In this document: positions 8,187 to 32,000 of the stretch, in pieces | Numbering within the stretch: position 1 is the first letter of the stretch | Layout: every line of letters begins with the position of its first letter | Assembly: GCF_000981785.2 (NCBI RefSeq) | Contig: NZ_CP011304.1 | Coordinates: 510,001 to 542,000, forward strand | DNA length: 32,000 nucleotides | Reading direction: 5' to 3' | DNA from: Microcystis aeruginosa NIES-2549 | GTDB taxonomy: Bacteria > Cyanobacteriota > Cyanobacteriia > Cyanobacteriales > Microcystaceae | Made by a program: the position numbers and the translations under genes | The notes under the pieces: model-generated | The model's input: the letters and a program-made list of their open reading frames with translations, nothing else | Told to the model about the DNA's origin: nothing | The model's database searches: none

Positions 8187-9554
8187 TTATTCAGCCCGAC
8201 TACTCAAAGGATTATTGAGATTGCCGGTGCTGGGACGTTTAACATTATGGGATTGTAGGAGTGAGATCGCCTGTTGGTACTGGGGATCATCCTTAGTTCC
8301 CAGCAAAGAAGGATCATCGCGGAAGCGCAGCTGTTGTTCCCGGGTTAACTCGATCTGCACATCGGGTTTAATGCCTTTTTTGTAGATATTTTCGCCGTTG
8401 GGGGGATAATAACGGGCAATTGTCACCGCTAAACCAGAACCATCGGAGAGGGTGTGTACCGATTGGACGGTACTCTTGCCATAAGTCGATGTACCGACTA
8501 AAGTCGCCCGGCCATTTTCTTTTAGCGCCCCGGCGAGGATTTCGCTGGCGCTGGCGGAACCTTTATTGACCAAGACTACTAGGGGTAAATCGGTAATAGC
8601 GGTGTTATTGGCACTAAATTGACGATCTCCGCCCCGTCGATCGATGGTGCTAACGATTTTGCCCTGTTTCATCCACATACGAGCGATATCGACACTAGCA
8701 AATAGTAAACCCCCGGGGTTGCCTCGCAGATCGAGAACATAGCCGGATATTTGTTGTTGACTTAATTCCTCGATCGCCTCTTTCATTTGTTCGGCTGCGT
8801 GGGAACTAAATTCATCCAGTTTGATATAACCAACTTTCACCCCACCTTCCTGTTTCAGGGTATAGCTAACCGAGGGAATTTCGATATCTACCCGGGTCAA
8901 AGTCACTTCAAATACCCCTTGATCGGGACGGGCAAGCTGTAAACTAACGCTAGTACCCACTTCTCCCTGTAGAGCTTCCATTGCCTGTTCTAAGGTCATT
9001 AAAGCGGTGGGTTTGCCGTTAATTCTGATCAGGCGATCGCCGCTTTTCACTCCCGCTTCCTTGGCGGGGGATTTTTTCACCGTATCGACAACGATCAGAT
9101 CGCTAGTGCGTTTATCGAGGGCTAAACGTATGCCGATTCCCGATAATTCTCCAGAAGTTTGACTGGTGAGGACAGAAAATTCACTAGGAGTTAAAAAACG
9201 GGTATAAGTATCACCCAACTCCTTTAACGCTTCCCGGATTGCCGTGTAAGCTTGTTGGGGATTAGTATAATTTCTGCTTAACAATTCTTGACGTTTTTTT
9301 TGCCAATCAATTTGATGAAAACTACGATCTACAAATTCATTATTAACAATTTGCCAAACCTGGTCGATGACTGCTTTCGGGTTATCTTCTAAGGGTTTTT
9401 CCCCTTTGGCTGCGGGGGTGAGGACCATCAGGGAACTAACTGCTAGGGTAGCGATCGCACCTCCAGATAGGAGTTTCTGCACGGAAACGAACGAGGGACG
9501 CGACTGGTTCATAAAGACAAAGCCAAAATAAGATTGACGTTTAGATAAAGCCAT
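8187..9554 (-). CDS. S41 family carboxyl-terminal processing protease (Ctp)
   Basis: 455 aa. Signal/anchor region, then a PDZ-like segment (GIGIRLA...VKKSPAKEAGVKSGDRLIRING). Catalytic Ser context VLVNKGSASASEILAGALK and Lys context TYGKSTVQS. Confidence 0.88.
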   Translation of the reverse strand: MALSKRQSYFGFVFMNQSRPSFVSVQKLLSGGAIATLAVSSLMVLTPAAKGEKPLEDNPKAVIDQVWQIVNNEFVDRSFHQIDWQKKRQELLSRNYTNPQQAYTAIREALKELGDTYTRFLTPSEFSVLTSQTSGELSGIGIRLALDKRTSDLIVVDTVKKSPAKEAGVKSGDRLIRINGKPTALMTLEQAMEALQGEVGTSVSLQLARPDQGVFEVTLTRVDIEIPSVSYTLKQEGGVKVGYIKLDEFSSHAAEQMKEAIEELSQQQISGYVLDLRGNPGGLLFASVDIARMWMKQGKIVSTIDRRGGDRQFSANNTAITDLPLVVLVNKGSASASEILAGALKENGRATLVGTSTYGKSTVQSVHTLSDGSGLAVTIARYYPPNGENIYKKGIKPDVQIELTREQQLRFRDDPSLLGTKDDPQYQQAISLLQSHNVKRPSTGNLNNPLSSRAE

Positions 9555-18700: not shown

Positions 18701-18820
18701 TATATAGCGTTTTTCAGTCTGCTGAGGTACAAAAGTTATGGGTTTTAGGCAAAAGGCAAGAGGCAAAAGGCAAAAGGGAAGAAAATAGGTGTACCTCACT
18801 AGCTTAGGAAACGCTATATA
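18701..18820. mobile_element. MITE-like element, family B
   Basis: The 30-nt terminal inverted repeats are TATATAGCGTTTTTCAGTCTGCTGAGGTAC and GTACCTCACTAGCTTAGGAAACGCTATATA. 23 of 30 positions are complementary, with the outer 12 and inner 7 perfect. The interior carries GGCAAAAGGCAAGAGGCAAAAGGCAAAAGG heptamers like family A. Confidence 0.55.
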
Positions 18821-19056
18821 TAGTTAAAGCCGTCCGACCCTAAGCTTTCATGACGGGGCTTTAAACCCAGATTTTCGGTAAAATCTCTAAGCTTTTAAGT
18901 GAACAGAAAATCTCCAGACGGCAAATGTTTGCACAAACGAACCTCCTTGAGGTATGGCCAGGGGCAGTAGAAGCTGATGGGCAAATCGCCATTTCGGGCG
19001 ATTACCGACCTGAACAAGGAAATTACAGATTTTTTCAAGCTAGGATCAAAGATTTT

Positions 19057-19148: not shown

Positions 19149-20570
19149 ATGCCCGAAACGCCACAAGAAGTCTTGAAAATGATTCAGGACAACAATATTA
19201 AGATTATTGACCTGAAATTTATTGATATGCCTGGTATCTGGCAACATTGCTCGTTCTACTACGATCAAATCGATGAAAGCTCTTTCAGCGATGGTGTTGC
19301 CTTCGATGGTTCCAGTATTCGCGGTTGGAAAGCAATTAACGAGTCTGATATGGCCATGGTTCCCGATCCCACCACTGCTTGGATCGATCCCTTCTACAAG
19401 GAACCCACCCTAAGCATGATCTGTAGCATCAAAGAACCGAGAACCGGTGAATGGTATAGCCGCGATCCTCGCTCTATTGCTCAGAAAGCGATCGATTATC
19501 TTAGCACTACCGGTTTAGGTGATACCGTATTTTTTGGACCGGAAGCAGAATTTTTCCTCTTTGATAGCGCTCGTTTCGATCAAACCGCCAACTCCGGCTA
19601 TTACTACATGGATAGTGTCGAAGGTCGTTGGAATAGCGGTAAAGACGAAAAAGACGGAAATCTTGCCTATAAACCCGCCTACAAACAGGGTTATTTTCCC
19701 GTTAGTCCCACCGATACCTCTCAAGACATTCGCACGGAAATGCTCTTAACCATGGCCGACTGCGGAGTTCCCATTGAAAAACATCACCATGAAGTCGCTA
19801 CCGGTGGTCAAAACGAGTTAGGGATTAAATTCTCTACCCTAGTACGGGCCGCCGACTACTTGATGACCTATAAATACTGCATCAAGAACGTGGCTAAGAA
19901 ATACGGTAAAACCGTCACCTTTATGCCTAAACCCATCTTTGGTGATAACGGTTCTGGGATGCACGTTCACCAGTCTATCTGGAAAGATGGTCAACCCCTG
20001 TTCGCTGGGGATAAATACGCCGGACTTAGCCAAATGGCACTGTACTACATCGGTGGTTTGCTTAGACACGCTCCCGCGCTCTTAGCTTTAACTAACCCCA
20101 CCACCAACTCTTACAAGCGTCTCGTCCCCGGTTTTGAGGCCCCTGTAAACCTAGCCTACTCCCAAGGTAATCGCTCCGCTTCGATTCGGATTCCTTTATC
20201 GGGAAGCAACCCGAAAGCCAAACGTTTAGAATTCCGTTGTCCTGATGCGACTTCTAACCCCTACCTCGCTTTTGCCGCCATGCTCTGTGCCGGTATCGAT
20301 GGGATTAAAAATCAAATCGACCCCGGGGAACCCCTTGATGTGGATATCTACGAACTAAGTCCCGAAGAATTGTCAAAAATACCCTCTACCCCCGGTTCTC
20401 TAGAAGCAGCTCTAGAAAGTCTCGAAAAAGATCACGCTTTCTTGACCGATTCTGGTGTTTTTACCGAAGACTTTATCCAAAACTGGATCACCTACAAACT
20501 CGATAACGAAGTTAACCCGATGCGCTTACGTCCTCACCCCTACGAGTTCTCTCTCTACTACGATGTCTAA
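19149..20570 (+). CDS. glnA: glutamine synthetase type I
   Basis: 473 aa. [37 protein letters not shown] and [20 protein letters not shown]. Confidence 0.95.
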
Positions 20571-20597
20571 GGTTTGATTGACTAATCATTAATCCTA

Positions 20598-20624
20598 GGG
20601 TGGGCTTTTGTCTGCCCTTTTTTT
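20598..20624 (+). terminator. Rho-independent terminator of glnA
   Basis: GGGTGGGC-TTTT-GTCTGCCC hairpin (8 bp including G-U pairs) followed by TTTTTTT, 28 nt after the stop. Confidence 0.65.
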
Positions 20625-20675
20625 CGGAATCAGCAAGGGAGTGGGGAGCGGGGGAGATGGGATAATAAATAAAAG

Positions 20676-20724
20676 CTGAATCCTGAATACTGAATAGTGA
20701 CTCCTGAATACTGAATACTGAGTA
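20676..20724 (+). repeat. heptamer array (CTGAATA-type, 7 units)
   Basis: CTGAATC CTGAATA CTGAATA GTGACTC CTGAATA CTGAATA CTGAGTA, read directly. Confidence 0.85.
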
Positions 20725-20789
20725 ACTGCCCAATCAAACAACAATCTTAAGCTTTATCCCCTCAGTCCTCAACAGTGATACAATTGCCG

Positions 20790-22275
<1,486 letters not shown>

Positions 22276-22290
22276 AGGGGAGTTATTGGG

Positions 22291-22313
22291 AGGGCTGATT
22301 TGATTTCAGCCCT
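22291..22313 (+). terminator. hairpin after thiC (possible terminator, weak U-tract)
   Basis: AGGGCTGA-TTTGATT-TCAGCCCT, 16 nt after the thiC stop. It is followed by ATTCC, so the T-run is poor. Confidence 0.4.
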
Positions 22314-22362
22314 ATTCCTAGGATAGAAGTCAAAATTATGGGAATAACCGCCGATTTTTTGA

Positions 22363-22902
22363 CTAATTGACCCGTTTTTCTAGATATTGACCGATCATCA
22401 ATTCTTGACCAGCGCGAGAGATAATCGTTTGTCGGGTGCGATATTGTTGACCGATGAGTTTAATTTCTTCTTCAAAGACAGAACCGGCGTATTCTGTTCT
22501 CAGACAGAGAGTAGAGGGGTTAGGAAAGGTATAAATAGCGCTAACGGGTTTATCCGTCGCAAATCCCCGATCGCGATAGAGAATATTATCTAAAATACCG
22601 AATATAGTGGAACCGTTGGAGGGTTTTTTACTCTGGGGACGGAGATAATTACTTTGCCAAGTCACTTCCGTGCCACCTAATAAGGTTGTATCTTCCAGAT
22701 TATGTAAACGGGCAAGTTGAATTAATGGTTCGCTGCCTTGGGGTAAATATTTAATCTCGATGGCGCTGATAACTTCTTGGGGTTCCGTTTCTTGGGTGAG
22801 GGTGTAATAACGTCTCTGGGATTGCCAGCGTCCTTCTGTCTGCTTAAAAAAGGCTAAAGCCGAGGTTTCCAGCGATAATTGGGCGGTTTGAATTAATGTC
22901 AT
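22363..22902 (-). CDS. CpcS/CpeS-family phycobiliprotein (bilin) lyase homolog
   Basis: From ATG 22902: MTLIQTAQLSLETSALAFFKQTEGRWQSQRRYYTL. This is the F..S.G.W.SQR N-terminal signature of the CpcS/CpeS lipocalin-like lyases, plus LYRDRGFA later. The track's TTG 22956 start is unlikely. Confidence 0.7.
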   Translation of the reverse strand: MTLIQTAQLSLETSALAFFKQTEGRWQSQRRYYTLTQETEPQEVISAIEIKYLPQGSEPLIQLARLHNLEDTTLLGGTEVTWQSNYLRPQSKKPSNGSTIFGILDNILYRDRGFATDKPVSAIYTFPNPSTLCLRTEYAGSVFEEEIKLIGQQYRTRQTIISRAGQELMIGQYLEKRVN

Positions 22903-23280
22903 AGAAATAAAACCTTTCCTGTTTTTTGGTAGAGCAGATTTGTTATCCTTTGTCAAGAGTTTGCCAGAGAACTGTTACACATCTTAATACAATTATAACC
23001 TTGCCTGGAAATTAAGTGGTAGGGGTGTTGAGGGAAATAATTCGGTAAAAGTCGCATAGATACAGCAGTTACAGGGAAAAAACGGGATAAGATTGCTAAA
23101 ACCTGTGAGCTTATCCTAGTTACTTCCATTTACCCTTATCTATCGATTAATTCTGTCAAATTGGCTACAGTGAGTACGAGGTTCTTCCTCCAACCCCTTT
23201 TTTACCTGTTACTTTTCATCCGATCTGCCCAGTCTTGCTATTGTTAAAAATATAGAACCTCCGAACCAGGTCTCAACTCC

Positions 23281-24201
23281 GTGCAGTTAAAACAAGTCAT
23301 CATCGCTCACAAGGCCAACCATCCCCAAAGTAAAGCATGGGCGGAAAAATGCGCTAAACAATTAGAAGCCCGTCAGTGTAAAGTTTTAATGGGACCCAGT
23401 GGCTTTAAAGATAATCCCTATCCGGTATTTTTAGCCTCAGCATCGGGAAAAATCGACCTAGCCATCGTTTTAGGCGGAGATGGAACCACTTTGGCCGCCA
23501 CTCGCTATTTAGCTCACGAAGACATTCCAATTTTAGCGGTGAATGTCGGCGGCCATCTGGGATTTTTAACGGAACCTTTTGAGGTTTTCCAAGATACAGA
23601 GACGGTCTGGGAGCGTTTACAATCGGACCACTATGCGGTACAACAACGGATGATGTTAACGGCCAGAATCTATGAAGGGGATAAAAGAAACCCAGAGGCA
23701 GTGAGCGAGGCATTTTATGCCCTGAATGAGATGTGTGTGAAACCCGCTAGTATCGATAGGATGCCCACCTCGATCCTGGAAATCGAAGTGGACGGGGAAA
23801 TAGTAGATCAGTACCAAGGAGACGGCCTATTAGTGGCCACTCCCACGGGGTCCACCTGTTACACCGCTTCCGCTAATGGCCCGATTATACACCCCGGCAT
23901 GGAAGCGATCGCTGTCACCCCGATTTGTCCCTTGAGTCTCTCCAGTCGGCCGATTGTCATTCCCCCGGCATCTCTGGTCAGTATTTGGCCCCTGGGAGAC
24001 TACGAATTAAATACTAAACTCTGGATGGATGGCGCTTTAGCCACTTCCATTTGGCCCGGGCAATGGGTGGGAGTTACTAAAGCTGAAAAATTCGCCCAAT
24101 TTATTATCCTGCGGGAAAGTTATTCTTTTTATCAGACTCTACAGGAAAAATTGCAATGGGCCGGGGCGAGAATTCATTATGATGGCAATCGTCATAATTA
24201 G
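23281..24201 (+). CDS. nadK: NAD(+) kinase
   Basis: 306 aa, GTG start. LAIVLGGDGTTL, ALNEMCV and YQGDGLLVATPTGSTCYTASANGPI. Confidence 0.9.
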   Translation: MQLKQVIIAHKANHPQSKAWAEKCAKQLEARQCKVLMGPSGFKDNPYPVFLASASGKIDLAIVLGGDGTTLAATRYLAHEDIPILAVNVGGHLGFLTEPFEVFQDTETVWERLQSDHYAVQQRMMLTARIYEGDKRNPEAVSEAFYALNEMCVKPASIDRMPTSILEIEVDGEIVDQYQGDGLLVATPTGSTCYTASANGPIIHPGMEAIAVTPICPLSLSSRPIVIPPASLVSIWPLGDYELNTKLWMDGALATSIWPGQWVGVTKAEKFAQFIILRESYSFYQTLQEKLQWAGARIHYDGNRHN

Positions 24202-24441
24202 GACTGGCTCAAGAGCTTCTGGGAGTGGTGTCTGGGGGATGATTGAGTATATCTTCTAAAATTGGTCATTACTTCCGATTTTATCAGTCAATCTAGGCTT
24301 TTGGGGGGTAGAACCCCCCAAACCCAGAAGCGCATTTGCTGATTGTCGGTATTTCTGCAAGAGAGGGTCAAAAGTTGTCAAAATATTTGACAAAGTTGCC
24401 ACTTTATGGTAAGAAATTGGGTCATTATTATCCCTTAAATT

Positions 24442-25509
24442 TTAAATTTCATCCCATCCAGTTAAGCCAGAAGACATAACATAACTGGTAACGGTTGCTT
24501 CAAAAAAGTTAGCTTTGGTGTGGCCTTCTTTTTTGGTATCGGAGAAGCGTTCCAGATGGGTATAGGGACTTTTTTTATACTTTTCTTCCCTGTATAAAGG
24601 CTCAAGTCCGATCGCTTTTAGTCGAATATTAGCGAGGTATTTGGTGTACTGTTCGGTACTGTATTCGGTAATACCTAAAATGTCGTTGCCAACAATGTGA
24701 TTTGTCCAGCGACATTCGTGTTTAACGGCACTATCGAACATCTCATAAATCTGTTCAACAGAATGGGGAAAAATTGCCATGGCTTCGGGGATAAGTTTTT
24801 GATACAAACGGACGTGACTTAATTCGTCCCGGTTGATCATTTTGAAAACGTCAGCACTACCGGACATTAGCTGTCGAGAAGCGAGATTATAGAAGAAGAT
24901 AAAGCCGTTATAAAAATACAAACTCTCCAGTAAATAGTCGGCAAGAAGAGCGATAAAATAGCTTTCAGTAGTTTGTTTGTCGATGTATTGCTGGTAGAGA
25001 CTAGCGATAAATTCACAGCGATCCTTGAGAACTTTATCGGTACGCCAAAAGTCGTAAACTTCACCTCTGCGATCCGATGGAATAATCGTTTCAATTAAGT
25101 ATTGATAACTTTGATTGTGCATGGCTTCTTGGGAAATTTGTTCCGCCATACAAAGACTAATTTCTGGCGCAGTGACGCTACCTTTTAGGTGGGGAATATT
25201 ACAGGTTTGTACGGAATCAAGAAAAGTTAGATAGGACAAAATACCATCATAAGCATATCTTTCTTCATCGGTAAGATGCCCGTATTCAGTCACGTCTTGA
25301 GTGATATCTAAGCGTTGGGGGATCCAGAAATTTTCCCGCATTTGTTGATATAAACCAACCGCCCAGGTGTAGCGGACATCGTTTAATTGCATCAGGTTGG
25401 TGGTGTTACCAAACCAGATTGAACGGTTTTCGATCGCATCATCTCCCGACGGATTGAAGATCGGGGAAATGGGCATCGAATGGCAAGAATTAACTAAATG
25501 TAAGGACAT
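24442..25509 (-). CDS. nrdB: class I ribonucleotide reductase beta subunit (R2)
   Basis: 355 aa. Di-iron ligand contexts EQISQEAMHNQSY and NRDELSHVRLY, and ESLYFYNGF. Confidence 0.9.
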   Translation of the reverse strand: MSLHLVNSCHSMPISPIFNPSGDDAIENRSIWFGNTTNLMQLNDVRYTWAVGLYQQMRENFWIPQRLDITQDVTEYGHLTDEERYAYDGILSYLTFLDSVQTCNIPHLKGSVTAPEISLCMAEQISQEAMHNQSYQYLIETIIPSDRRGEVYDFWRTDKVLKDRCEFIASLYQQYIDKQTTESYFIALLADYLLESLYFYNGFIFFYNLASRQLMSGSADVFKMINRDELSHVRLYQKLIPEAMAIFPHSVEQIYEMFDSAVKHECRWTNHIVGNDILGITEYSTEQYTKYLANIRLKAIGLEPLYREEKYKKSPYTHLERFSDTKKEGHTKANFFEATVTSYVMSSGLTGWDEI

Positions 25510-25562
25510 GATTACTTGGATATTATGGCACTTTTAGGTTATAATAGGTTTTCGGTAAAAAG

Positions 25563-26009
25563 TCAAATGGTTTGATTAGGAATAAATTCAAAATCTAGGG
25601 CTTCTGCCAAAGTAAATGGGCAATCGTTCGGGAATTTATCGAGGTTTATCCCTGTTTCAATAGCGGCTTTTTTTCTGGCTTTGTTATAGCATTTTTTAAA
25701 AATTTCTTCTGTTAAAAAAATCTTAAGACTAGGGCTAGTTTCTAAATCTTCTTCGATTCTTTCGCGATGCTCAAAAAGGGTTAATTCCCAGCTTCTGCTT
25801 TGTTTTTCTGGCTCTTGTAAGTATTTTAGTAAATGCCATAAAATCACGGTCAGATTGCTTTTTAATGCTTTCTGTTGACTGATAGACATAGATTTGATTT
25901 CTTCAATTAAATTCTCTAAATCTAAATCGGAAAACTGGCGATTTTCCAGTAAATTAATTGTTTTCTCTAACCAGAGATAGTAATCTTTTTCGTATAAGTT
26001 CTTTTCCAT
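25563..26009 (-). CDS. DUF29 domain protein (copy 1)
   Basis: MEKNLYEKDYYLWLEKTINLLENRQFSDLDLENLIEEIKSM is the DUF29 N-terminal signature. An alternative ATG at 26021 would overlap the upstream stop as TAATG. ATG 26009 aligns with the paralogs and follows GGGGA. Confidence 0.8.
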   Translation of the reverse strand: MEKNLYEKDYYLWLEKTINLLENRQFSDLDLENLIEEIKSMSISQQKALKSNLTVILWHLLKYLQEPEKQSRSWELTLFEHRERIEEDLETSPSLKIFLTEEIFKKCYNKARKKAAIETGINLDKFPNDCPFTLAEALDFEFIPNQTI

Positions 26010-26020
26010 AATTATCCCCA

Positions 26021-26473
26021 TTATTTTGATATTTCAGGAAACCAATCCTCATTTAAAGCCTGTTCTATAGTGCAAATTGGAGCTAAACCGACCAAATTTT
26101 CAGCCATTCCAGATAGATCCAGAAATAATTTACGAGCATTTTGATAACAGGGGGAGAAAATTTCCAATAAATAGGGCTTTAAACTGGGACTGTCTTCAAT
26201 AATTTGTTGAATTCGTAGGCGAAAGTTACGGATTTCATTTTTCCATCCTCTTTGATTATATTCTAATTCCGACTGCCAGTAAGCTAGTTTCAGCAAATGT
26301 TCTAATAACCGAGTTAAATAACTTTCTAAACTTCGTTTCTCACTTTTCCCCATACTACTAATTTCATCAATTAAATTTTCTAAATCCAACTCAGAAAATT
26401 GACGATTTTCTAGTAAAGATATAGTTTTCTCTATCCAGAGATAGTAATCCTGTTCGTATAAATCACTCTTCAT
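26021..26473 (-). CDS. DUF29 domain protein (copy 2)
   Basis: MKSDLYEQDYYLWIEKTISLLENRQFSELDLENLIDEISSMGKSEKRSLESYLTRLLEHLLKLAYWQ. The ATG is 3 nt after the copy 3 stop. Confidence 0.85.
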   Translation of the reverse strand: MKSDLYEQDYYLWIEKTISLLENRQFSELDLENLIDEISSMGKSEKRSLESYLTRLLEHLLKLAYWQSELEYNQRGWKNEIRNFRLRIQQIIEDSPSLKPYLLEIFSPCYQNARKLFLDLSGMAENLVGLAPICTIEQALNEDWFPEISK

Positions 26474-26476
26474 TGC

Positions 26477-26953
26477 TTAATCCTCTCCGAGAAACTCAGG
26501 AAACCAATTTTCATCTAAAATTTGGTTGATTGATCCAATAGGTGTAGCACTTAAAAGTCTTTTATCGATGCCAGAACCTTCGACAAATAGATGGCAAGCA
26601 TCCTCGTAACATTGATCGAGAATCTCGGTGAGATAAGATACTAAGTTTGTATTATAAGTTCCATCCTTTTTGTTGCTAATAATTCTTTTTATTTGAATGC
26701 GAAAATTTAAAATCTCACGTCGCCACTTGTTTTTATTGTAATCGCGCTTAGATTGCCAATAAGTTAATTTAAGTAAATGCTCCAAGAGTTTAGTTAGTAA
26801 ACTCTCTAACTTCTGACGTTCTCTTCTGGACATATCTTTTATTTCTTCAATTAAATTTTCTAAATCCAACTCAGAAAATTGACGATTTTCTAGTAAAGAT
26901 ATGGTTTTATCTAACCAGAGATAGTAATCCTGTTCGTATAAAGTCTTATCCAT
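26477..26953 (-). CDS. DUF29 domain protein (copy 3)
   Basis: From ATG 26953: MDKTLYEQDYYLWLDKTISLLENRQFSELDLENLIEEIKDMSRRERQKLESLLTKLLEHLLKLTYWQ. The track's longer ORF (to 27058) overlaps the nrdA 3' end, and its extension has no homology to the paralogs. Confidence 0.85.
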   Translation of the reverse strand: MDKTLYEQDYYLWLDKTISLLENRQFSELDLENLIEEIKDMSRRERQKLESLLTKLLEHLLKLTYWQSKRDYNKNKWRREILNFRIQIKRIISNKKDGTYNTNLVSYLTEILDQCYEDACHLFVEGSGIDKRLLSATPIGSINQILDENWFPEFLGED

Positions 26954-26990
26954 AGCTGTGATTAGGTGATGAATAAGACTTATCTTAACC

Positions 26991-29900
26991 TTAATTAGCG
27001 CAACTAGAACAACTATCGTCAGACTCTCGAAAATTGTCCTTTTGTACGGTACGGACATAATAAATCGCTTTACACCCCAATTCCCACGCCATGATTAGAG
27101 TATCAAAGATATCCTTGGCTGTGAGACAACGGTTGGGTTCTGCGGGAAAATAAACCCCTTCATTGAGGTTGAATAATAACTCCATAGAAATCCCCGTATC
27201 GATCCATTCTTGCATAGTAGCGATCGCTTTGACCACTTGTTGCTGTTCGAGGTTTTTATTCTCTGGATAAAACCAGAAAGCTTCTTCAATAAAAGGCGGT
27301 GCGATGGGAACAGTTCCCTTTGCCCATTTATCGTAGAAAAAGCGACTATAAACCGGCAAAACACTAGCGGTACATCCCTGTACCAAACTAGAGGAAGTAT
27401 TAGGAGCAATGGCGGTAATATGGGAATTACGGATGCCAAATCGTTGAATATCTTCGGCTAATTGTTGCCATCTTTGCGGTTGCACCGCGTTATTTAAAAA
27501 CCATGCCACTGGTTTTGCCCCGATTAATTTGCCTTGACTCCATTCGCTACCCAAGAAAGCTTGATAAGCGCCGCGTTCTTTGGCTAATTCCATCGAGGAA
27601 TAGGTACACCAATAGCCAATTTCTTCAAATAAATTACTAATTTCTGACAGGTTATTGTAGGATAATTTCCGTTTAGCTAACCAGTCAGCCAATCCCATCG
27701 CCCCTACCCCAATAGTGCGATATTTATCGTTGTGGCTTTTAGCATTATCAAAGGGAGGATTAGTAATATCGATAGTATTGTCGAGAATTCTGACAGCGAT
27801 TTGACAATTAGACTCGATTTCTTCCCTGTCGATGTTGGCTAAATTAAGGCTAACTAAATTACAGCAATGAGCAGTTTTATCGGGGGTGACATTGCTAAAA
27901 GATTCGGTGCATTGTCCTGTGAGAATGCCGTTAAACATTCCCAGATGACGCTTGGGTTCTGTAAAACAGTAGGTGTCATCTCGACGACAGGTTAACTCTA
28001 CCGATTCAATGCGGATAAACTGAGTGGCCGAACGTTGGGGTTCTTTTAACGTCCATTGTAAGCGATGGGTTTTAAGTCCCAATTGACCAAGTTGAAATAG
28101 TCCGACAGAATTAATCAGTAAACGATATTTTGGTTGACAGAGATATTCTTGATAATTTCCCTTTCCATTTGGCATCAATTTATAGCCACCGTCATCCATA
28201 GCAGTAACTTTGGAATCAACTCCTAAAGTCTGTAACATTAGGCGAATATCGAGCAAAAATTGCCGGTTAACAGAAGCAATCTGGAGAGACTCGTTAGAAC
28301 CATTGCGGGCAACTGTTCCATCGGCATCAAGTAAACCAGCTAACCATTCTAAACGAGATTTAATTGTGTAACCATTGAGAGGAACTGTAAATTTACTGGG
28401 AATATCTAACGGGAGTTTACAGACGATCCGATCTTGTTTACTGTCATGATAGACCGCTAGGGTATCGGTTTCTTTTCTCCAAAAAGTACCTTTTTCAATA
28501 GAGCCATTTCCCCGATATTTGTTACGAATAGCCAATAAGGGAAGTAACTCTTTTTTAACTCCGTATAGGTCAACTTCTGGTATTCCATTGTTTCCGTAAC
28601 TCCCATCTCCAGAAAAGAATCCTGCGGTGTAGGCGTAGGGAAAGTCAAGATCATTTTCTGACTGGATGAGAGGCAGCTGGTATTTAATTAATTTATCCCC
28701 TTGTTTGAGGTCTTTTGCCTCCACAATTTCCACGGTTCCCTTGTAGTTTTTCTGAACGTAAAACTTATGGTAGTAAGTACATTCCAAGTTCTCTCCGTTA
28801 GAGAAATTGACCTTTAATAAAGGCTGGTTTTCTCCAGTCTTTTTAACTAATACTTCTGACCACTCCAATCCATTCCAGACATTAACATATTCTCCCACCA
28901 AATCAGCGATTGCTATTTGTCCTCGATCCGTGAGAATTTTTGTTTCTCCCGCAACGCATAAATTTACACCGGGGATATAGCCATCGTGTTTATTAGGATT
29001 AGCTCGATTGATGGTATCTTTGAAGGCAATGTAGGGCATTCCTGTTTCCACTTGGGAACGCATGATACTTTTAAATAAGTCCCGGGCATTGATTTTTTTA
29101 TAGAGGACAATCTCTCTATCTAAATTAGCCTCTACTAAACGATAAGCCTCTTCAAATTCTTCCCCCCATAGTTCCGCTAATTCTATACCTAATTTAGTGC
29201 GAACTTCGTAGGGATCTACTAATGTCCACTCGGCTTTAGTTATCACCCGACGCATGAATTCATCGGTGATAACTAATTGGGGAAAAATATCATAAGCTTT
29301 GCGTCTTTGATCACCGTTTTCTGTCTGCATTTCCAGAAATTCTGGCACGTCTAAATGCCAGATGTCAACACCGATGGTAACAGCCCCGGCGCGTCTTCCC
29401 CCCTGATTGACTGCAATAGCTGTATCGTTGAGTAATTTAATCCAAGGAATAATCCCACCAGAAGCATTAGCTTTGCCCATTACCCAGCTACCAGTGGCGC
29501 GAATTCTACTCACATTCACCCCGACACCGCCACCATTTTTGGAGATGCGGGCAGCATTAGTAATCTCGCTGAAAATACTTTCTAAACTGTCGTCAATGGA
29601 GAGGATAAAACAACTGGTTAGGGAACCTTTGGGAGTGCGTAAATTGGCTAAAATTGGGGTGGCAAGAGAGATTTTTCTTTGGGCAATCGCTTGATAAAAT
29701 TTCTTCGCCCAGGGTAGTCTATTAGCCGGTTCTTCCACAATGGCAAGCAGTAAGGAACAGGTTAATAATGCCTCTTGGGGTAACTCATTTTTGAGTAAAT
29801 AACGGCTAGTGATTAACAATGCGCCAGCGTAATCATAATCGATATCCCAATCGGGATTAATCCAAGAACCAGCTTCTTTTAATTCTGCCTCGGAATAGAT

Positions 29901-30350
29901 GAGAATCCTTTCGTCGTATAGGCGATTTTTAACTTGAGTTTTGACGGTTTTCTCGTAATTTCCGTACTGATAACCCCGGGCTACTAAGGTATCTTTCCAA
30001 AGACTCCAAATATGCAATCTTCCCGCCACATAACGCCAATCCGGTTCCTCTGGACTACACATTTCTAGGGCGCAATTGATTAAATTATCCTGTATTTCCC
30101 TAGTGGTAATCCCATCCCGCAGGCGTGTGGTTAAACCCGCTTCTAAGGCGATTGAATTGACTTTTTTACCTTCACAAGCCCACTCTACCACGTCGCGAAT
30201 TTTGCCGATATTTAAGCTTGTGGTGGAACCATCACGCCGAATCACTTTAATTCCATGGCTGCCCATATTAGCTAAAGGGGTAGAACGAAAGGGTATTACT
30301 TCGTTATTTTTGTGAATGGAAACAGCAGTAGTCAAGGGCTTCGATTGCAT
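26991..30350 (-). CDS. nrdA: class I ribonucleotide reductase alpha subunit, intein-containing precursor
   Basis: 1119 aa. ATP-cone-like IKVIRRDGSTTSLNIGKIRDVV, LATPILANLRTP, SCFILSIDDSLESI, GGGVGVNVSRIRATGS and a C-terminal CSSC pair. The active-site NLC-TE motif is split by residues 465-813. The mature protein would be 770 aa. Confidence 0.93.
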   Translation of the reverse strand: MQSKPLTTAVSIHKNNEVIPFRSTPLANMGSHGIKVIRRDGSTTSLNIGKIRDVVEWACEGKKVNSIALEAGLTTRLRDGITTREIQDNLINCALEMCSPEEPDWRYVAGRLHIWSLWKDTLVARGYQYGNYEKTVKTQVKNRLYDERILIYSEAELKEAGSWINPDWDIDYDYAGALLITSRYLLKNELPQEALLTCSLLLAIVEEPANRLPWAKKFYQAIAQRKISLATPILANLRTPKGSLTSCFILSIDDSLESIFSEITNAARISKNGGGVGVNVSRIRATGSWVMGKANASGGIIPWIKLLNDTAIAVNQGGRRAGAVTIGVDIWHLDVPEFLEMQTENGDQRRKAYDIFPQLVITDEFMRRVITKAEWTLVDPYEVRTKLGIELAELWGEEFEEAYRLVEANLDREIVLYKKINARDLFKSIMRSQVETGMPYIAFKDTINRANPNKHDGYIPGVNLCVAGETKILTDRGQIAIADLVGEYVNVWNGLEWSEVLVKKTGENQPLLKVNFSNGENLECTYYHKFYVQKNYKGTVEIVEAKDLKQGDKLIKYQLPLIQSENDLDFPYAYTAGFFSGDGSYGNNGIPEVDLYGVKKELLPLLAIRNKYRGNGSIEKGTFWRKETDTLAVYHDSKQDRIVCKLPLDIPSKFTVPLNGYTIKSRLEWLAGLLDADGTVARNGSNESLQIASVNRQFLLDIRLMLQTLGVDSKVTAMDDGGYKLMPNGKGNYQEYLCQPKYRLLINSVGLFQLGQLGLKTHRLQWTLKEPQRSATQFIRIESVELTCRRDDTYCFTEPKRHLGMFNGILTGQCTESFSNVTPDKTAHCCNLVSLNLANIDREEIESNCQIAVRILDNTIDITNPPFDNAKSHNDKYRTIGVGAMGLADWLAKRKLSYNNLSEISNLFEEIGYWCTYSSMELAKERGAYQAFLGSEWSQGKLIGAKPVAWFLNNAVQPQRWQQLAEDIQRFGIRNSHITAIAPNTSSSLVQGCTASVLPVYSRFFYDKWAKGTVPIAPPFIEEAFWFYPENKNLEQQQVVKAIATMQEWIDTGISMELLFNLNEGVYFPAEPNRCLTAKDIFDTLIMAWELGCKAIYYVRTVQKDNFRESDDSCSSCAN
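27912..28958 (-). mobile_element. intein with LAGLIDADG homing-endonuclease domain inside nrdA
   Basis: Residues 465-813 (349 aa). Block A CVAGETKILT, block B TxxH (ECTYYHKF), LAGLIDADG motifs YTAGFFSGDGSYG and LEWLAGLLDADGTVA. C-terminal DDTYCFTEPKRHLGMFNGILTGQ is followed by +1 Cys. Excision restores GVNL-CTESF. Confidence 0.88.
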
Positions 30351-30378
30351 AATTGGGAAATTGCGGCGTTAAAAAAAC

Positions 30379-30407
30379 TTGACAAATTAATCTATTTGTA
30401 CTAGAGT
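30379..30407 (+). promoter_or_regulatory. candidate sigma70-type promoter reading away from nrdA
   Basis: TTGACA (30379-30384), a 17-nt spacer, then TAGAGT (30402-30407). It is back-to-back with the candidate nrdA -10. Function unproven. Confidence 0.4.
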
Positions 30408-30436
30408 ATTCTATCAGATTTTCTAGGAAAACACAA
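30408..30436 (-). promoter_or_regulatory. candidate promoter of the nrdA-DUF29x3-nrdB operon
   Basis: Minus strand: TTGTGT (30436-30431), a 17-nt spacer, then TAGAAT (30413-30408), about 58 nt upstream of the nrdA ATG. The -35 lies inside NrdR-like box 1. Confidence 0.4.
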
Positions 30437-30478
30437 CATCTAGCGTGTTAAATAATTTTATAACTCTATATGTAGTAG
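30431..30478 (-). promoter_or_regulatory. two tandem NrdR-type boxes
   Basis: Box 1 is ACACAACATCTAGCGT (30431-30446) and box 2 is ACTCTATATGTAGTAG (30463-30478). Against my recalled consensus acaCwAnATnTwGtgt they match 13/14 and 11/14 defined positions. The start-to-start spacing is 32 bp, the spacing typical of paired NrdR boxes. Confidence 0.55.
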
Positions 30479-30839
30479 AGCGAGGATTGTTTTGTTCCCC
30501 AAAACAGTGTTTTGGATGACATTTTCCGCAAAAAATTCTCGATTTTCCTGGGAAGAAAGATAGTTCCTTTGTATGCTTGACAAAAAGCTTGTTTTTTGAT
30601 AACAAAAACAGATTGACAAAATATTTCCGATCCCATTGTGCTTGACTACTGAGGAGGTTGTGGTGAGACTTTATTTGTTCTTAACTTTTCGATAATTTAA
30701 GACAAGAGTGGATTAAAAGTCAAATTTCCTCTGAGAACCTCTGAGAGAGTAAATTTTCTCTTTTCGCTATTTAGTGTCTTACCGCTAGAATAATAGGACA
30801 AAAACGCTATATATAGCGTCTAGCCAGTAGAGGACAAGG

Positions 30840-32000
30840 ATGAAATATTTAGAAGAATGGCGTGGTAGCGGGGTGGACGCGGAGTTAATTGATCTCAATG
30901 TCACTGGTTTAGCGGGGTTATCTCCCAGTGAATACCTACTCTACTCCCAAGAATTACCGCGACGCAATGATGGCAGGGTTAGGGATAGTATTCTCAAGCG
31001 TTATGAACATACCAGTCAAGGCGGTTGGTGGTGTTCAGGAATTGACTTATTAACGGGTAATTATGACACTTGGGGCTGTTTTAAGCCCGATTTTCCCCGT
31101 TTAAGCTTCGATAAGGCTAAACCGATTAAGTACGAACATCCTCCCCAAACCCCTACGGGAGTCTTTGCTTTGCGGGTTCCCCTGAAAATTTGGCAAAGGA
31201 TAGCCCAGTCTATCAATGTTAATATTTTACCTGAAGAAGTGGATAATAAGCAAGAGGATCTCGGTTTTTGGTCGTGGGTAATTAAACATCCAGAGATACC
31301 TATTTGTCTTACGGAAGGGGCAAAAAAAGCGGGGGCTTTACTAACAGCAGGTTATGTAACAATTGCCTTACCCGGGATTCACAATGGTTATCGTACTCCC
31401 AAGGACGAATTAGGTAGGAGAATCGGCAAATCTCATTTAATTCCGCAGCTAGAAAAATTAGCTAACTCTGGACGAAAGATTTATCTAGTTTTTGATCAAG
31501 AAACTAAACCGAAAACCCAACAAGCGGTTAATTTAGCTTTACGGAGAATGGGTTATCTATTCAGTCAGGCTAACTGTGAGGTAAAGGTAGTTGCTTGGGA
31601 TGCTGCTGACGGTAAAGGGGTGGATGATTTACTAATCAATCGAGGAGAAGATTACTTTCAACAAGTCTATCAAAAAGCTACTTCTTGGGAGATTTGGAAA
31701 GCAACGAATTTAAATAGTTTAACTCTCCCACCTCATCTAGAGTTAAATAGCCGTTACTTGCCAGATATTTCTATCCCTACATCAGCGCAGTTAGTGGCGA
31801 TTCAATCGGCTAAAGGTACGGGTAAAACTGAGTTTTTAGCCAAGATAGTTAAACAAGCTATTGCCAATCAACAAAAAGTTTTAGTTATCGGTCATCGGGT
31901 TAAACTGGTAGAGGAGTTATGTCAACGCTTTGGTTTAAACTATATCAGCAAAATTAGGGATAATCCTGCGGCACAAATTTACGGTTATGGTTTATGTATT
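30840..32000 (+). CDS. DUF3854 (Toprim-like) plus P-loop NTPase protein, CyRepA-like replicase/primase-helicase, N-terminal 387 aa only (runs off right edge)
   Basis: GAGGA lies 5 nt before ATG 30840, and the frame is stop-free to 32000. MKYLEEWRGSGVDAELIDLNVTGL..., Toprim-like ICLTEGAKKAGALLTAGYVTIALPGIHNGY, IYLVFDQE and DGKGVDDLL, then Walker A IQSAKGTGKTEFL. It is not in the ORF track because no stop lies in the window. Confidence 0.7.
   Translation, partial: MKYLEEWRGSGVDAELIDLNVTGLAGLSPSEYLLYSQELPRRNDGRVRDSILKRYEHTSQGGWWCSGIDLLTGNYDTWGCFKPDFPRLSFDKAKPIKYEHPPQTPTGVFALRVPLKIWQRIAQSINVNILPEEVDNKQEDLGFWSWVIKHPEIPICLTEGAKKAGALLTAGYVTIALPGIHNGYRTPKDELGRRIGKSHLIPQLEKLANSGRKIYLVFDQETKPKTQQAVNLALRRMGYLFSQANCEVKVVAWDAADGKGVDDLLINRGEDYFQQVYQKATSWEIWKATNLNSLTLPPHLELNSRYLPDISIPTSAQLVAIQSAKGTGKTEFLAKIVKQAIANQQKVLVIGHRVKLVEELCQRFGLNYISKIRDNPAAQIYGYGLCI

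Follow-up and report, generated by a model that had tools for sequence, protein, structure and literature searches.

Between nrdA and nrdB, which encode the large and small subunits of class Ia ribonucleotide reductase (RNR), Microcystis aeruginosa NIES-2549 carries three tandem genes of the DUF29 family (PF01724), here called c3, c2, and c1 in the order in which they follow nrdA. We posit, at a probability of roughly 55%, that they form a hitch-hiking array of accessory genes in a tolerated nrdA-nrdB spacer and not an RNR-specific module. The window that we analyzed spans 32,000 nucleotides (nt) of contig NZ_CP011304.1 (positions 510,001 to 542,000 of the forward strand); coordinates refer to this window unless a related locus, designated by an L number, is named. 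The list of open reading frames (ORFs) and the raw sequence place five genes in order on the minus strand: the intein-containing nrdA (26991-30350; Pfam ATP-cone, Ribonuc_red_lgN, and Ribonuc_red_lgC), c3 (26477-26953; 158 amino acids [aa]; PF01724, E value 6e-41), c2 (26021-26473; 150 aa; 1.7e-48), c1 (25563-26009; 148 aa; 3e-48), and nrdB (24442-25509; PF00268, 1e-65). The spacers are 37 nt between nrdA and c3 (26954-26990), 3 nt between c3 and c2 (26474-26476), and 53 nt between c1 and nrdB (25510-25562), and c2 is separated from c1 by 11 nt if c1 starts at 26009 or overlaps it at a TAATG if the alternative ATG at 26021 is used. We prefer the 26009 start because it gives the family-typical M-x-x-x-LYE N terminus and has a GGGGA ~7 nt upstream; c3 starts at the ATG at 26953, and a longer ORF from 27058, which overlaps nrdA, is unneeded. 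A first-pass annotation of this stretch had described three tightly packed DUF29 genes, co-directional with nrdA and nrdB, and the PF01724 matches and ORF coordinates bear it out; its spacer lengths are exact in the raw sequence, and the N-terminal signature that it quoted is present in c1, c2, and c3.

The three ORFs are functional genes of the DUF29 family and are under purifying selection. PF01724 matches each copy over its full length (model positions 1 to 137 or 138 of 138; 164, 164.8, and 140.3 bits for c1, c2, and c3, respectively, with a gathering threshold of 22.5 bits), and the three proteins are 41-58% identical to one another. Ratios of nonsynonymous to synonymous divergence (dN/dS) among Microcystis alleles are 0.21-0.37 for c1, 0.16-0.32 for c2, and 0.14-0.26 for c3, versus 0.03-0.08 for nrdB; the DUF29 genes therefore encode proteins under purifying selection, weaker than that on nrdB. 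Their base composition is atypical, at 32-33% GC (32% in c3) and 27-32% at third codon positions, and the corresponding figures for nrdA and nrdB are 41-43% and ~40-42%. The c2 protein and MYAER_0525 of M. aeruginosa NIES-2549 are identical (100%), c3 is 95-98% identical to its orthologues in other Microcystis loci, and NrdB of the window is 98-99% identical to other Microcystis NrdB proteins. No Rfam family was found in positions 24000-31200.

DUF29 placement between nrdA and nrdB is recurrent, and the copy number is polymorphic. Our comparison covered at least 80 nrdB loci, one genome per species and 1.38 Mb in all, seeded from nrd-linked sequences; genes in related loci were called by simple ORF heuristics, and DUF29 was sought with a hidden Markov model (HMM) built from the copies. 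Half of the 80 nrdB loci have nrdA upstream on the same strand. Among these 40 linked loci, the nrdA-nrdB gap is an empty site of 300 nt or less in 22 and holds DUF29 in nine: three Microcystis loci (L001, L002, and L003), Crocosphaera (L007, three copies), strain SU2 (L012), Aphanothece hegewaldii (L019), a Synechocystis metagenome-assembled genome (MAG; L026), an uncultured cyanobacterium (L057), and Hydrococcus rivularis (L005), whose 177-nt gap retains a remnant of the last ~43 codons. The synteny comparison that the first-pass annotation had proposed thus yields recurrence in at least six genera. The HMM found 22 matches in the nrdB loci, and 18 of them lie inside nrdA-nrdB gaps, which amount to 1.7% of the DNA; the others are a gene immediately 3' of an nrdB without linkage to nrdA (L006), a gene immediately 5' of an nrdB where the contig ends (L008), and two genes away from the gap (L062 and L076). 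DUF29 is missing from the gap in 31 of the 40 linked loci, which have the same RNR type, including three (L010, L016, and L017) whose NrdB is 84-86% identical to that of the window. A search of the 700-880-nt nrdA-nrdB gaps of diatom endosymbionts (L029, L033, L040, and L048) gave no DUF29 remnants (best E value, 0.017). The insertion point varies, from 37 to ~155 nt past the nrdA stop and from 53 to ~445 nt ahead of the nrdB start. Accessory genes seem to land in this spacer generally, because in other genera other small genes occupy it: a Snowella MAG has a CyanoTRADDas_TM protein with two transmembrane segments (L028:9443-9760), and ORFs of 220 and 102 aa without known identity lie at L012:8560-9219 and L043:3338-3643.

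The DUF29 family is not RNR specific; its genomic contexts are promiscuous, and tandem arrays are common. A profile search of 1.84 billion cluster representatives returned 7,728 DUF29 clusters at 50% identity (E ≤ 1e-3), nearly all of them single-domain proteins of 140-165 aa. Longer members are tandem DUF29 fusions or DUF29 running into an IS605 OrfB helix-turn-helix (HTH) domain, and domain fusions were accordingly set aside as a clue to function. In a metagenome sample of at least 80 loci, chosen as relatives 48-66% identical to an nrd-linked copy, nrd genes are nearby in only four (L084, L113, L157, and L095) and absent from the vicinity of the other 76, and about a dozen of the 80 contain adjacent co-directional DUF29 copies or fragments. 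Unrelated contexts also harbor genes whose identity to an nrd-linked copy, at 60-64%, matches that of the nrd-linked relatives of this copy. A tandem pair of DUF29 genes is enclosed by cas7 and cas4 (spacers, 14 and -2 nt; L132:35-2493, Ga0308417_1017890), and three stand on one strand between a gene for pyruvate:ferredoxin oxidoreductase (PFOR) and a Fer4_12 radical-SAM activase-type gene (L110:34-5081, Ga0114972_10002163). Other neighbors identified by Pfam include sufB, N6/N4 and C5 DNA methylases, Uma2, DUF559, CHAT, DUF433, HTH_37, an IS200 transposase, an HNH endonuclease, and assorted housekeeping genes. No constant partner gene was found among the sampled DUF29 loci, and DUF29 is a solo gene at the single-copy sites L003, L019, L026, L081, and L082. 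Three of the 80 loci (L101, L148, and L159) have a small antitoxin-like ORF that starts 4-8 nt after DUF29, and a two-gene module of this kind is possible in a minority of family members. Of these ORFs (L148:1535-1813, L159:2864-3142, and L101:1524-1808), two look HicB-like by eye, with scores below the Pfam threshold, and one matches HTH_37. A type II toxin-antitoxin module was considered for the family as a whole and rejected: there is no conserved two-gene unit, and many copies are solo or adjoin paralogues only.

At least two DUF29 subfamilies share the gap of the window. The c1 protein, which adjoins nrdB, carries the motif LLKYxYQPEK ("KYxYQP"), and c2 and c3 carry LLKLxYWQSE ("YWQS"). 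In neighbor-joining trees (~142 alignment columns, 100 bootstrap replicates), the Microcystis c1 proteins form a group with 100% support that never pairs exclusively with c2 and c3 (0 of 100 trees), and in 53 of 100 trees c2 and c3 group with solo DUF29 genes of other genera, among them one located after ffh in Crocosphaera UHCC 0190 and one from Pannus, where its context is unrelated. In none of the 100 trees do nrd-linked copies from different genera form an exclusive clade. A metagenomic three-copy array (L095) that follows an intein-containing nrdA, with no nrdB nearby, pairs one-to-one with the three Crocosphaera copies of L007, each pair at 100% bootstrap; this array is therefore old and conserved in order, which indicates vertical descent.

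Within Microcystis the array is fluid. The window and L002 have three DUF29 copies, M. aeruginosa NIES-4325 (L003) has a single copy of the c1 type, a metagenomic locus (L113) has four together with an intein, and M. ichthyoblabe FBCC-A1114 (L001) has three copies, a 28-codon fragment, and then c1. The 5' coding stretches of the copies are homogenized and constitute one family of 137-nt direct repeats on the minus strand (c3, 26818-26954; c2, 26338-26474; c1, 25874-26010). Within codons 1-40, c2 and c3 use the same codon at 30 of 32 identical residues, versus ~40-45% beyond codon 40, and this codon-level identity therefore indicates recent gene conversion and not protein-level constraint alone; for c1 and c2 the figure in codons 1-40 is 21 of 31. 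In the single-copy allele of L003, the c3 5' untranslated region is fused to a coding sequence of the c1 type with a c3/c1 mosaic in its first codons, which is the product expected from unequal recombination between the conserved 5' stretches. Synonymous divergence (dS) of c2 alleles (window versus L001, L002, and L113) is 0.25-0.59, versus 0.09-0.15 for nrdB, which suggests allele exchange with paralogues or old polymorphism. In L001 the array is broken after codon 28 of the fourth copy (L001:4404-4600 and 9079-9500), and the glnA-thiC block, found at 19149-22956 in the window, now stands between the array and c1-nrdB; 7 kb of DNA, including glnA, thiC, and a gene on the opposite strand, divides the latter pair from nrdA. 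Dispersed DUF29 repeats may serve as rearrangement breakpoints that unlink nrdA from nrdB. Where the two genes have separated, c1 remains with nrdB in L001, DUF29 follows the unlinked nrdB in L006, and the array remains with nrdA in L095.

Transcription of c3, c2, and c1 by read-through from the nrdA promoter, with its NrdR-box-like sites, is plausible. The DUF29 genes have neither a terminator nor an operator of their own here, and read-through is therefore favored. A single transcript is also in keeping with the shared strand and short spacers; no hairpin resembling a terminator turned up when the four spacers were scanned, and pattern scans of the locus found NrdR-box-like sites only upstream of nrdA and none before c1 or nrdB, on both of which counts the first-pass annotation was right. 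These sites (30463-30478 and 30431-30446, minus strand) are 32 nt apart, begin and end 81-128 nt ahead of the nrdA start codon, differ from the published NrdR consensus at 3-4 positions, and recur as a pair in L001-L003. Promoter-like hexamer pairs exist inside the array (26679-26651 and 25660-25633), and such pairs are at chance level in the region (24 observed versus 19.1 ± 4.2 expected). At the c1/nrdB junction, nrdB probably has a promoter of its own, to judge from a candidate sigma-70-type element (25538-25566, minus strand; TTGACT-17 nt-TATAAC) whose TTGACT contains the TGA stop of c1. Read directly from the sequence, it was passed over by the promoter scan because its -10 hexamer ends in C; it is kept in five Microcystis loci and reads TATAAA in L001. 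Two NrdR-like boxes separate the DUF29 gene from nrdB in L057, and in Crocosphaera an NrdR-like CTATATAG core occupies the same interval. The candidate promoter and the L001 arrangement speak against the nrdA promoter as the sole source of nrdB transcripts, and because of them and of the NrdR-like boxes of L057 and Crocosphaera, the earlier proposal that read-through of the three genes is required for nrdB expression is doubtful.

Three further features touch on these signals. Directly 3' of the nrdA stop in M. aeruginosa NIES-4325 is an insertion (L003:9427-9475), missing from the window, with a hairpin GGGTGGGCAATGCCCACC followed by a T run, which resembles a terminator; the DUF29-nrdB pair of that strain may be transcriptionally separate from nrdA. 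At 30804-30819, within the divergent region 5' of nrdA and ~25 nt ahead of a gene on the plus strand, is a perfect 16-nt palindrome, ACGCTATATATAGCGT, with two mismatches to the NrdR-box consensus. A sequence similar to it, ACGCTATATATAGTTA, lies at 18811-18826, upstream of the glnA region.

The DUF29 proteins, of ~150 aa, are acidic four-helix bundles. Structure prediction, suggested by the first-pass annotation, gave for c2 the helical bundle that it had envisaged, yet no significant fold match: the AlphaFold2 model (mean predicted local distance difference test score, 90.5) has helices at residues 3-22, 31-65, 67-94, and 96-121 plus a short C-terminal helix, and Foldseek searches of the PDB and BFVD with it returned nothing below an E value of 0.6, where the best match is the helical nuclease NeC3PO/translin (probability, 0.84; TM-score, 0.36). 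A profile of the c2 group finds a single solved relative, 3FCN, an "alpha-helical protein of unknown function" (E value 2e-7, residues 1-144), and this match and the c2 model agree on an all-alpha fold; the papers listed for 3FCN do not deal with its function. 3FCN is not among the 50 Foldseek matches listed for the c2 model; either the conformations differ or the library or filters missed it. DUF29 proteins are acidic (median isoelectric point, 5.2; 94% below 6), which argues against DNA binding, and we infer that they act by binding a protein or a small ligand. Invariant across the family are Y6, D9, W13, D30, N33, E37, S51, H59, K62, W77, R85, an SPSL turn, and Y110. An ENLIEEI motif had raised the prospect of a MazG-like all-alpha nucleoside triphosphate pyrophosphatase, which was dropped because the listed Foldseek PDB matches contain no MazG or dUTPase and there are no Pfam or PDB sequence matches either; an HEPN-type Rx4-6H motif was likewise sought and is not in the alignments. 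Searches of NCBIfam, PADLOC, and PHROGs gave only the unnamed PHROG 11797 and no significant PADLOC match; in PADLOC-DB the sole match is WH_III-A, an unrelated winged-helix model, for c1 at an E value of 0.0047, with none for c2 or c3. Pfam, NCBIfam, and PADLOC revealed no nuclease, recombinase, or DNA-binding domain in the DUF29 copies, and Pfam revealed no NrdI-, NrdH-, or YfaE-type domain (flavodoxin, glutaredoxin-like, or 2Fe-2S ferredoxin). In the literature searched, a single paper names DUF29, and it reports that DUF29 baits self-activate in yeast two-hybrid screens (PMC2779905); that paper does not mention the nrd placement of DUF29, and PF01724 is mentioned nowhere in this literature.

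Such hitch-hikers, comparable to phage morons, would form an array along the following lines. DUF29 genes would settle in intergenic spacers across cyanobacterial genomes, tightly packed gene clusters included, and also beside toxin-antitoxin, restriction-modification, and insertion sequence (IS) genes; the nrd spacer would be a long-standing tolerated site in Microcystis and several related genera. There, an array would have been assembled from at least two subfamilies, c1 on the one hand and c2 plus c3 on the other, and would grow or shrink by recombination or gene conversion through the near-identical first 120-140 nt. The DUF29 genes would be expressed by read-through from the nrdA promoter and nrdB additionally from its own. 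Several points weigh against this reading. The persistent linkage seen in L001, L006, and L095 could reflect a functional tie, not mere tolerance; the invariant residues imply a specific conserved activity or binding site, which hitch-hiking leaves unexplained; the metagenome sample was seeded with nrd-linked sequences, with 80 loci listed; the deep nodes of the trees are weakly supported, so that repeated settlement of the spacer, or polyphyly of nrd-linked copies, is suggested only; and the final C of the candidate nrdB -10 hexamer is unfavorable.

The first-pass annotation had named three roles for the genes, and the one that fits best, a selfish family of helical-bundle cassettes, does so in the sense of a hitch-hiker. 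We consider it very unlikely that DUF29 is a novel type of homing or cassette gene, driving its own insertion and targeting conserved gene pairs in the manner of the T4 mobE gene. Homing elements are known to target RNR genes (PMC2790892, PMC3045599), nrdA here has an intein, different subfamilies meet in one gap, the placement is polymorphic for presence and absence, and the weak best fold match is a helical nuclease, C3PO/translin; but the proteins are acidic and devoid of any recognizable nuclease, recombinase, or DNA-binding domain, none of the fold matches is significant, the insertion point differs from genus to genus, attC-like sites would not fit into the short spacers, and the copy-for-copy conservation of a three-gene array speaks of vertical descent. 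At the other extreme, a single chance insertion without wider significance would suit the scatter of DUF29 over many unrelated contexts, yet it is barely credible when 18 of 22 matches fall in 1.7% of 1.38 Mb, in at least six genera and from at least two subfamilies.

A dedicated role in RNR function, in which the nrdB-proximal DUF29 protein (c1 and its counterparts) would be a class Ia partner kept in place for co-regulation by NrdR, perhaps as a factor for NrdB assembly or maintenance or as a small acidic inhibitor like yeast Sml1, strikes us as rather improbable. Placement next to nrdB does recur in several genera, c1 stays with nrdB in L001 although nrdA has moved away, DUF29 follows the unlinked nrdB in L006, the genes are under purifying selection, and the invariant D, E, H, K, R, and Y residues are compatible with metal or ligand binding. 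Set against this, most linked loci, L010, L016, and L017 among them, have no DUF29 in the gap, Hydrococcus holds a decayed remnant, copies 60-64% identical occur in unrelated contexts, nrd-linked copies do not form an exclusive clade, the array of L095 stays with nrdA instead of nrdB, and there is no similarity to NrdI, NrdH, or YfaE; the similar copies elsewhere and the empty gaps of most related genomes likewise tell against the accessory or regulatory module of the first-pass annotation. Its third role, an addiction or defense module, has neither a PADLOC match nor a constant partner gene behind it. In a broader form, in which DUF29 is a toxin, an antitoxin, or an immunity-type, anti-phage, or anti-defense protein that uses the essential nrd operon as a safe harbor against its own loss, the idea is unlikely; in its favor, the family is multicopy, AT rich, and fast evolving; DUF433, HTH_37, DNA methylases, Uma2, DUF559, CHAT, and Cas proteins are frequent neighbors; antitoxin-like ORFs follow DUF29 in L101, L148, and L159; inoviruses carry DUF29 as an accessory gene; and a CyanoTRADDas_TM gene sits in the nrd gap of L028. 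Such neighbors are abundant in cyanobacterial genomes anyway, however, single-copy sites are solo, the best PADLOC match (E value 0.005) is an unrelated model, and only 10 DUF29 loci turned up among 2.9 million viral contigs. Hitch-hiking in a tolerated spacer therefore remains our preferred reading.

Several known systems invite comparison with the array. RNR loci collect extra genetic elements (PMC2790892, PMC3045599), and in phage T4 the space between nrdA and nrdB is occupied by mobE, a gene for a free-standing HNH homing endonuclease (PMC2790892). Like mobE, the DUF29 genes are small, co-directional, non-RNR genes between nrdA and nrdB at a locus that has other selfish elements (an intein here, the intron with I-TevIII in T4); unlike it, they lack HNH, GIY-YIG, and LAGLIDADG motifs and encode acidic, all-helical proteins in arrays. 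The intein that the first-pass annotation had noted in this operon is confirmed by Pfam (27894-28955, minus strand; 354 aa; LAGLIDADG_3 and Intein_splicing), with boundaries set by blastn against intein-free Microcystis alleles. It is polymorphic, being absent from L001, L002, and L003 and carried by L113, whose NrdA is 98% identical over its full length including the intein, and nrdA of L095 has a LAGLIDADG intein at a position similar to that in the window; its presence does not track DUF29 copy number. Among annotated phage records, DUF29 matches only ORF11 of the Ralstonia inoviruses RSS1 and RSS0, which is an accessory addition to a conserved gene order and has passed between phage lineages (PMC4471427). 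Like the genes of the window, this phage moron is homologous to DUF29, sharing 35% identity with c1 across 94% of the ORF11 length, and the window copies differ from it in being chromosomal, cyanobacterial, and tandemly repeated. The array also recalls the RNR-operon accessory genes yfaE, nrdI, and nrdH of Escherichia coli and ymaB of Bacillus subtilis in that small ORFs are packed into an RNR operon and probably co-transcribed. Those genes are single copy, track one RNR class, and encode recognizable cofactor-binding folds, whereas DUF29 is multicopy, dispersed, and missing from most related nrdAB operons. To integron cassettes the array is likened by its short head-to-tail ORFs, minimal spacers, apparent lack of promoters, variable number, and probable expression from an upstream promoter. 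It has, in contrast, no integrase and no attC sites, for which its spacers of 3, 11, and 53 nt leave no room, and a repeat scan yielded only the paralogous coding repeats; its cassettes are all paralogues of one family, and it appears to change through homologous recombination in the conserved 5' stretch. A bolder extension, to which we assign a rather low likelihood, is that DUF29 represents an unrecognized kind of promoter-less cassette that spreads and builds arrays through its 5' 120-140-nt "handle" and accumulates in essential or conserved clusters (nrdA-nrdB, cas7-cas4, and PFOR-activase), where host transcription and selection against deletions would protect it, while its dispersed repeats would provide the breakpoints at which operons such as nrdAB come apart.

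With ~7,700 clusters at 50% identity, DUF29 is a very large family without a known function, and the Microcystis array cautions that position within an operon does not by itself amount to shared function. RNR loci are known to gather additional genetic elements, and the array extends this tendency to cyanobacterial chromosomes and to a gene that is not a nuclease. The natural alleles at this locus of an essential enzyme, with one, three, or four copies and with empty sites, would make it possible to test whether embedded genes affect the expression of their host operon.

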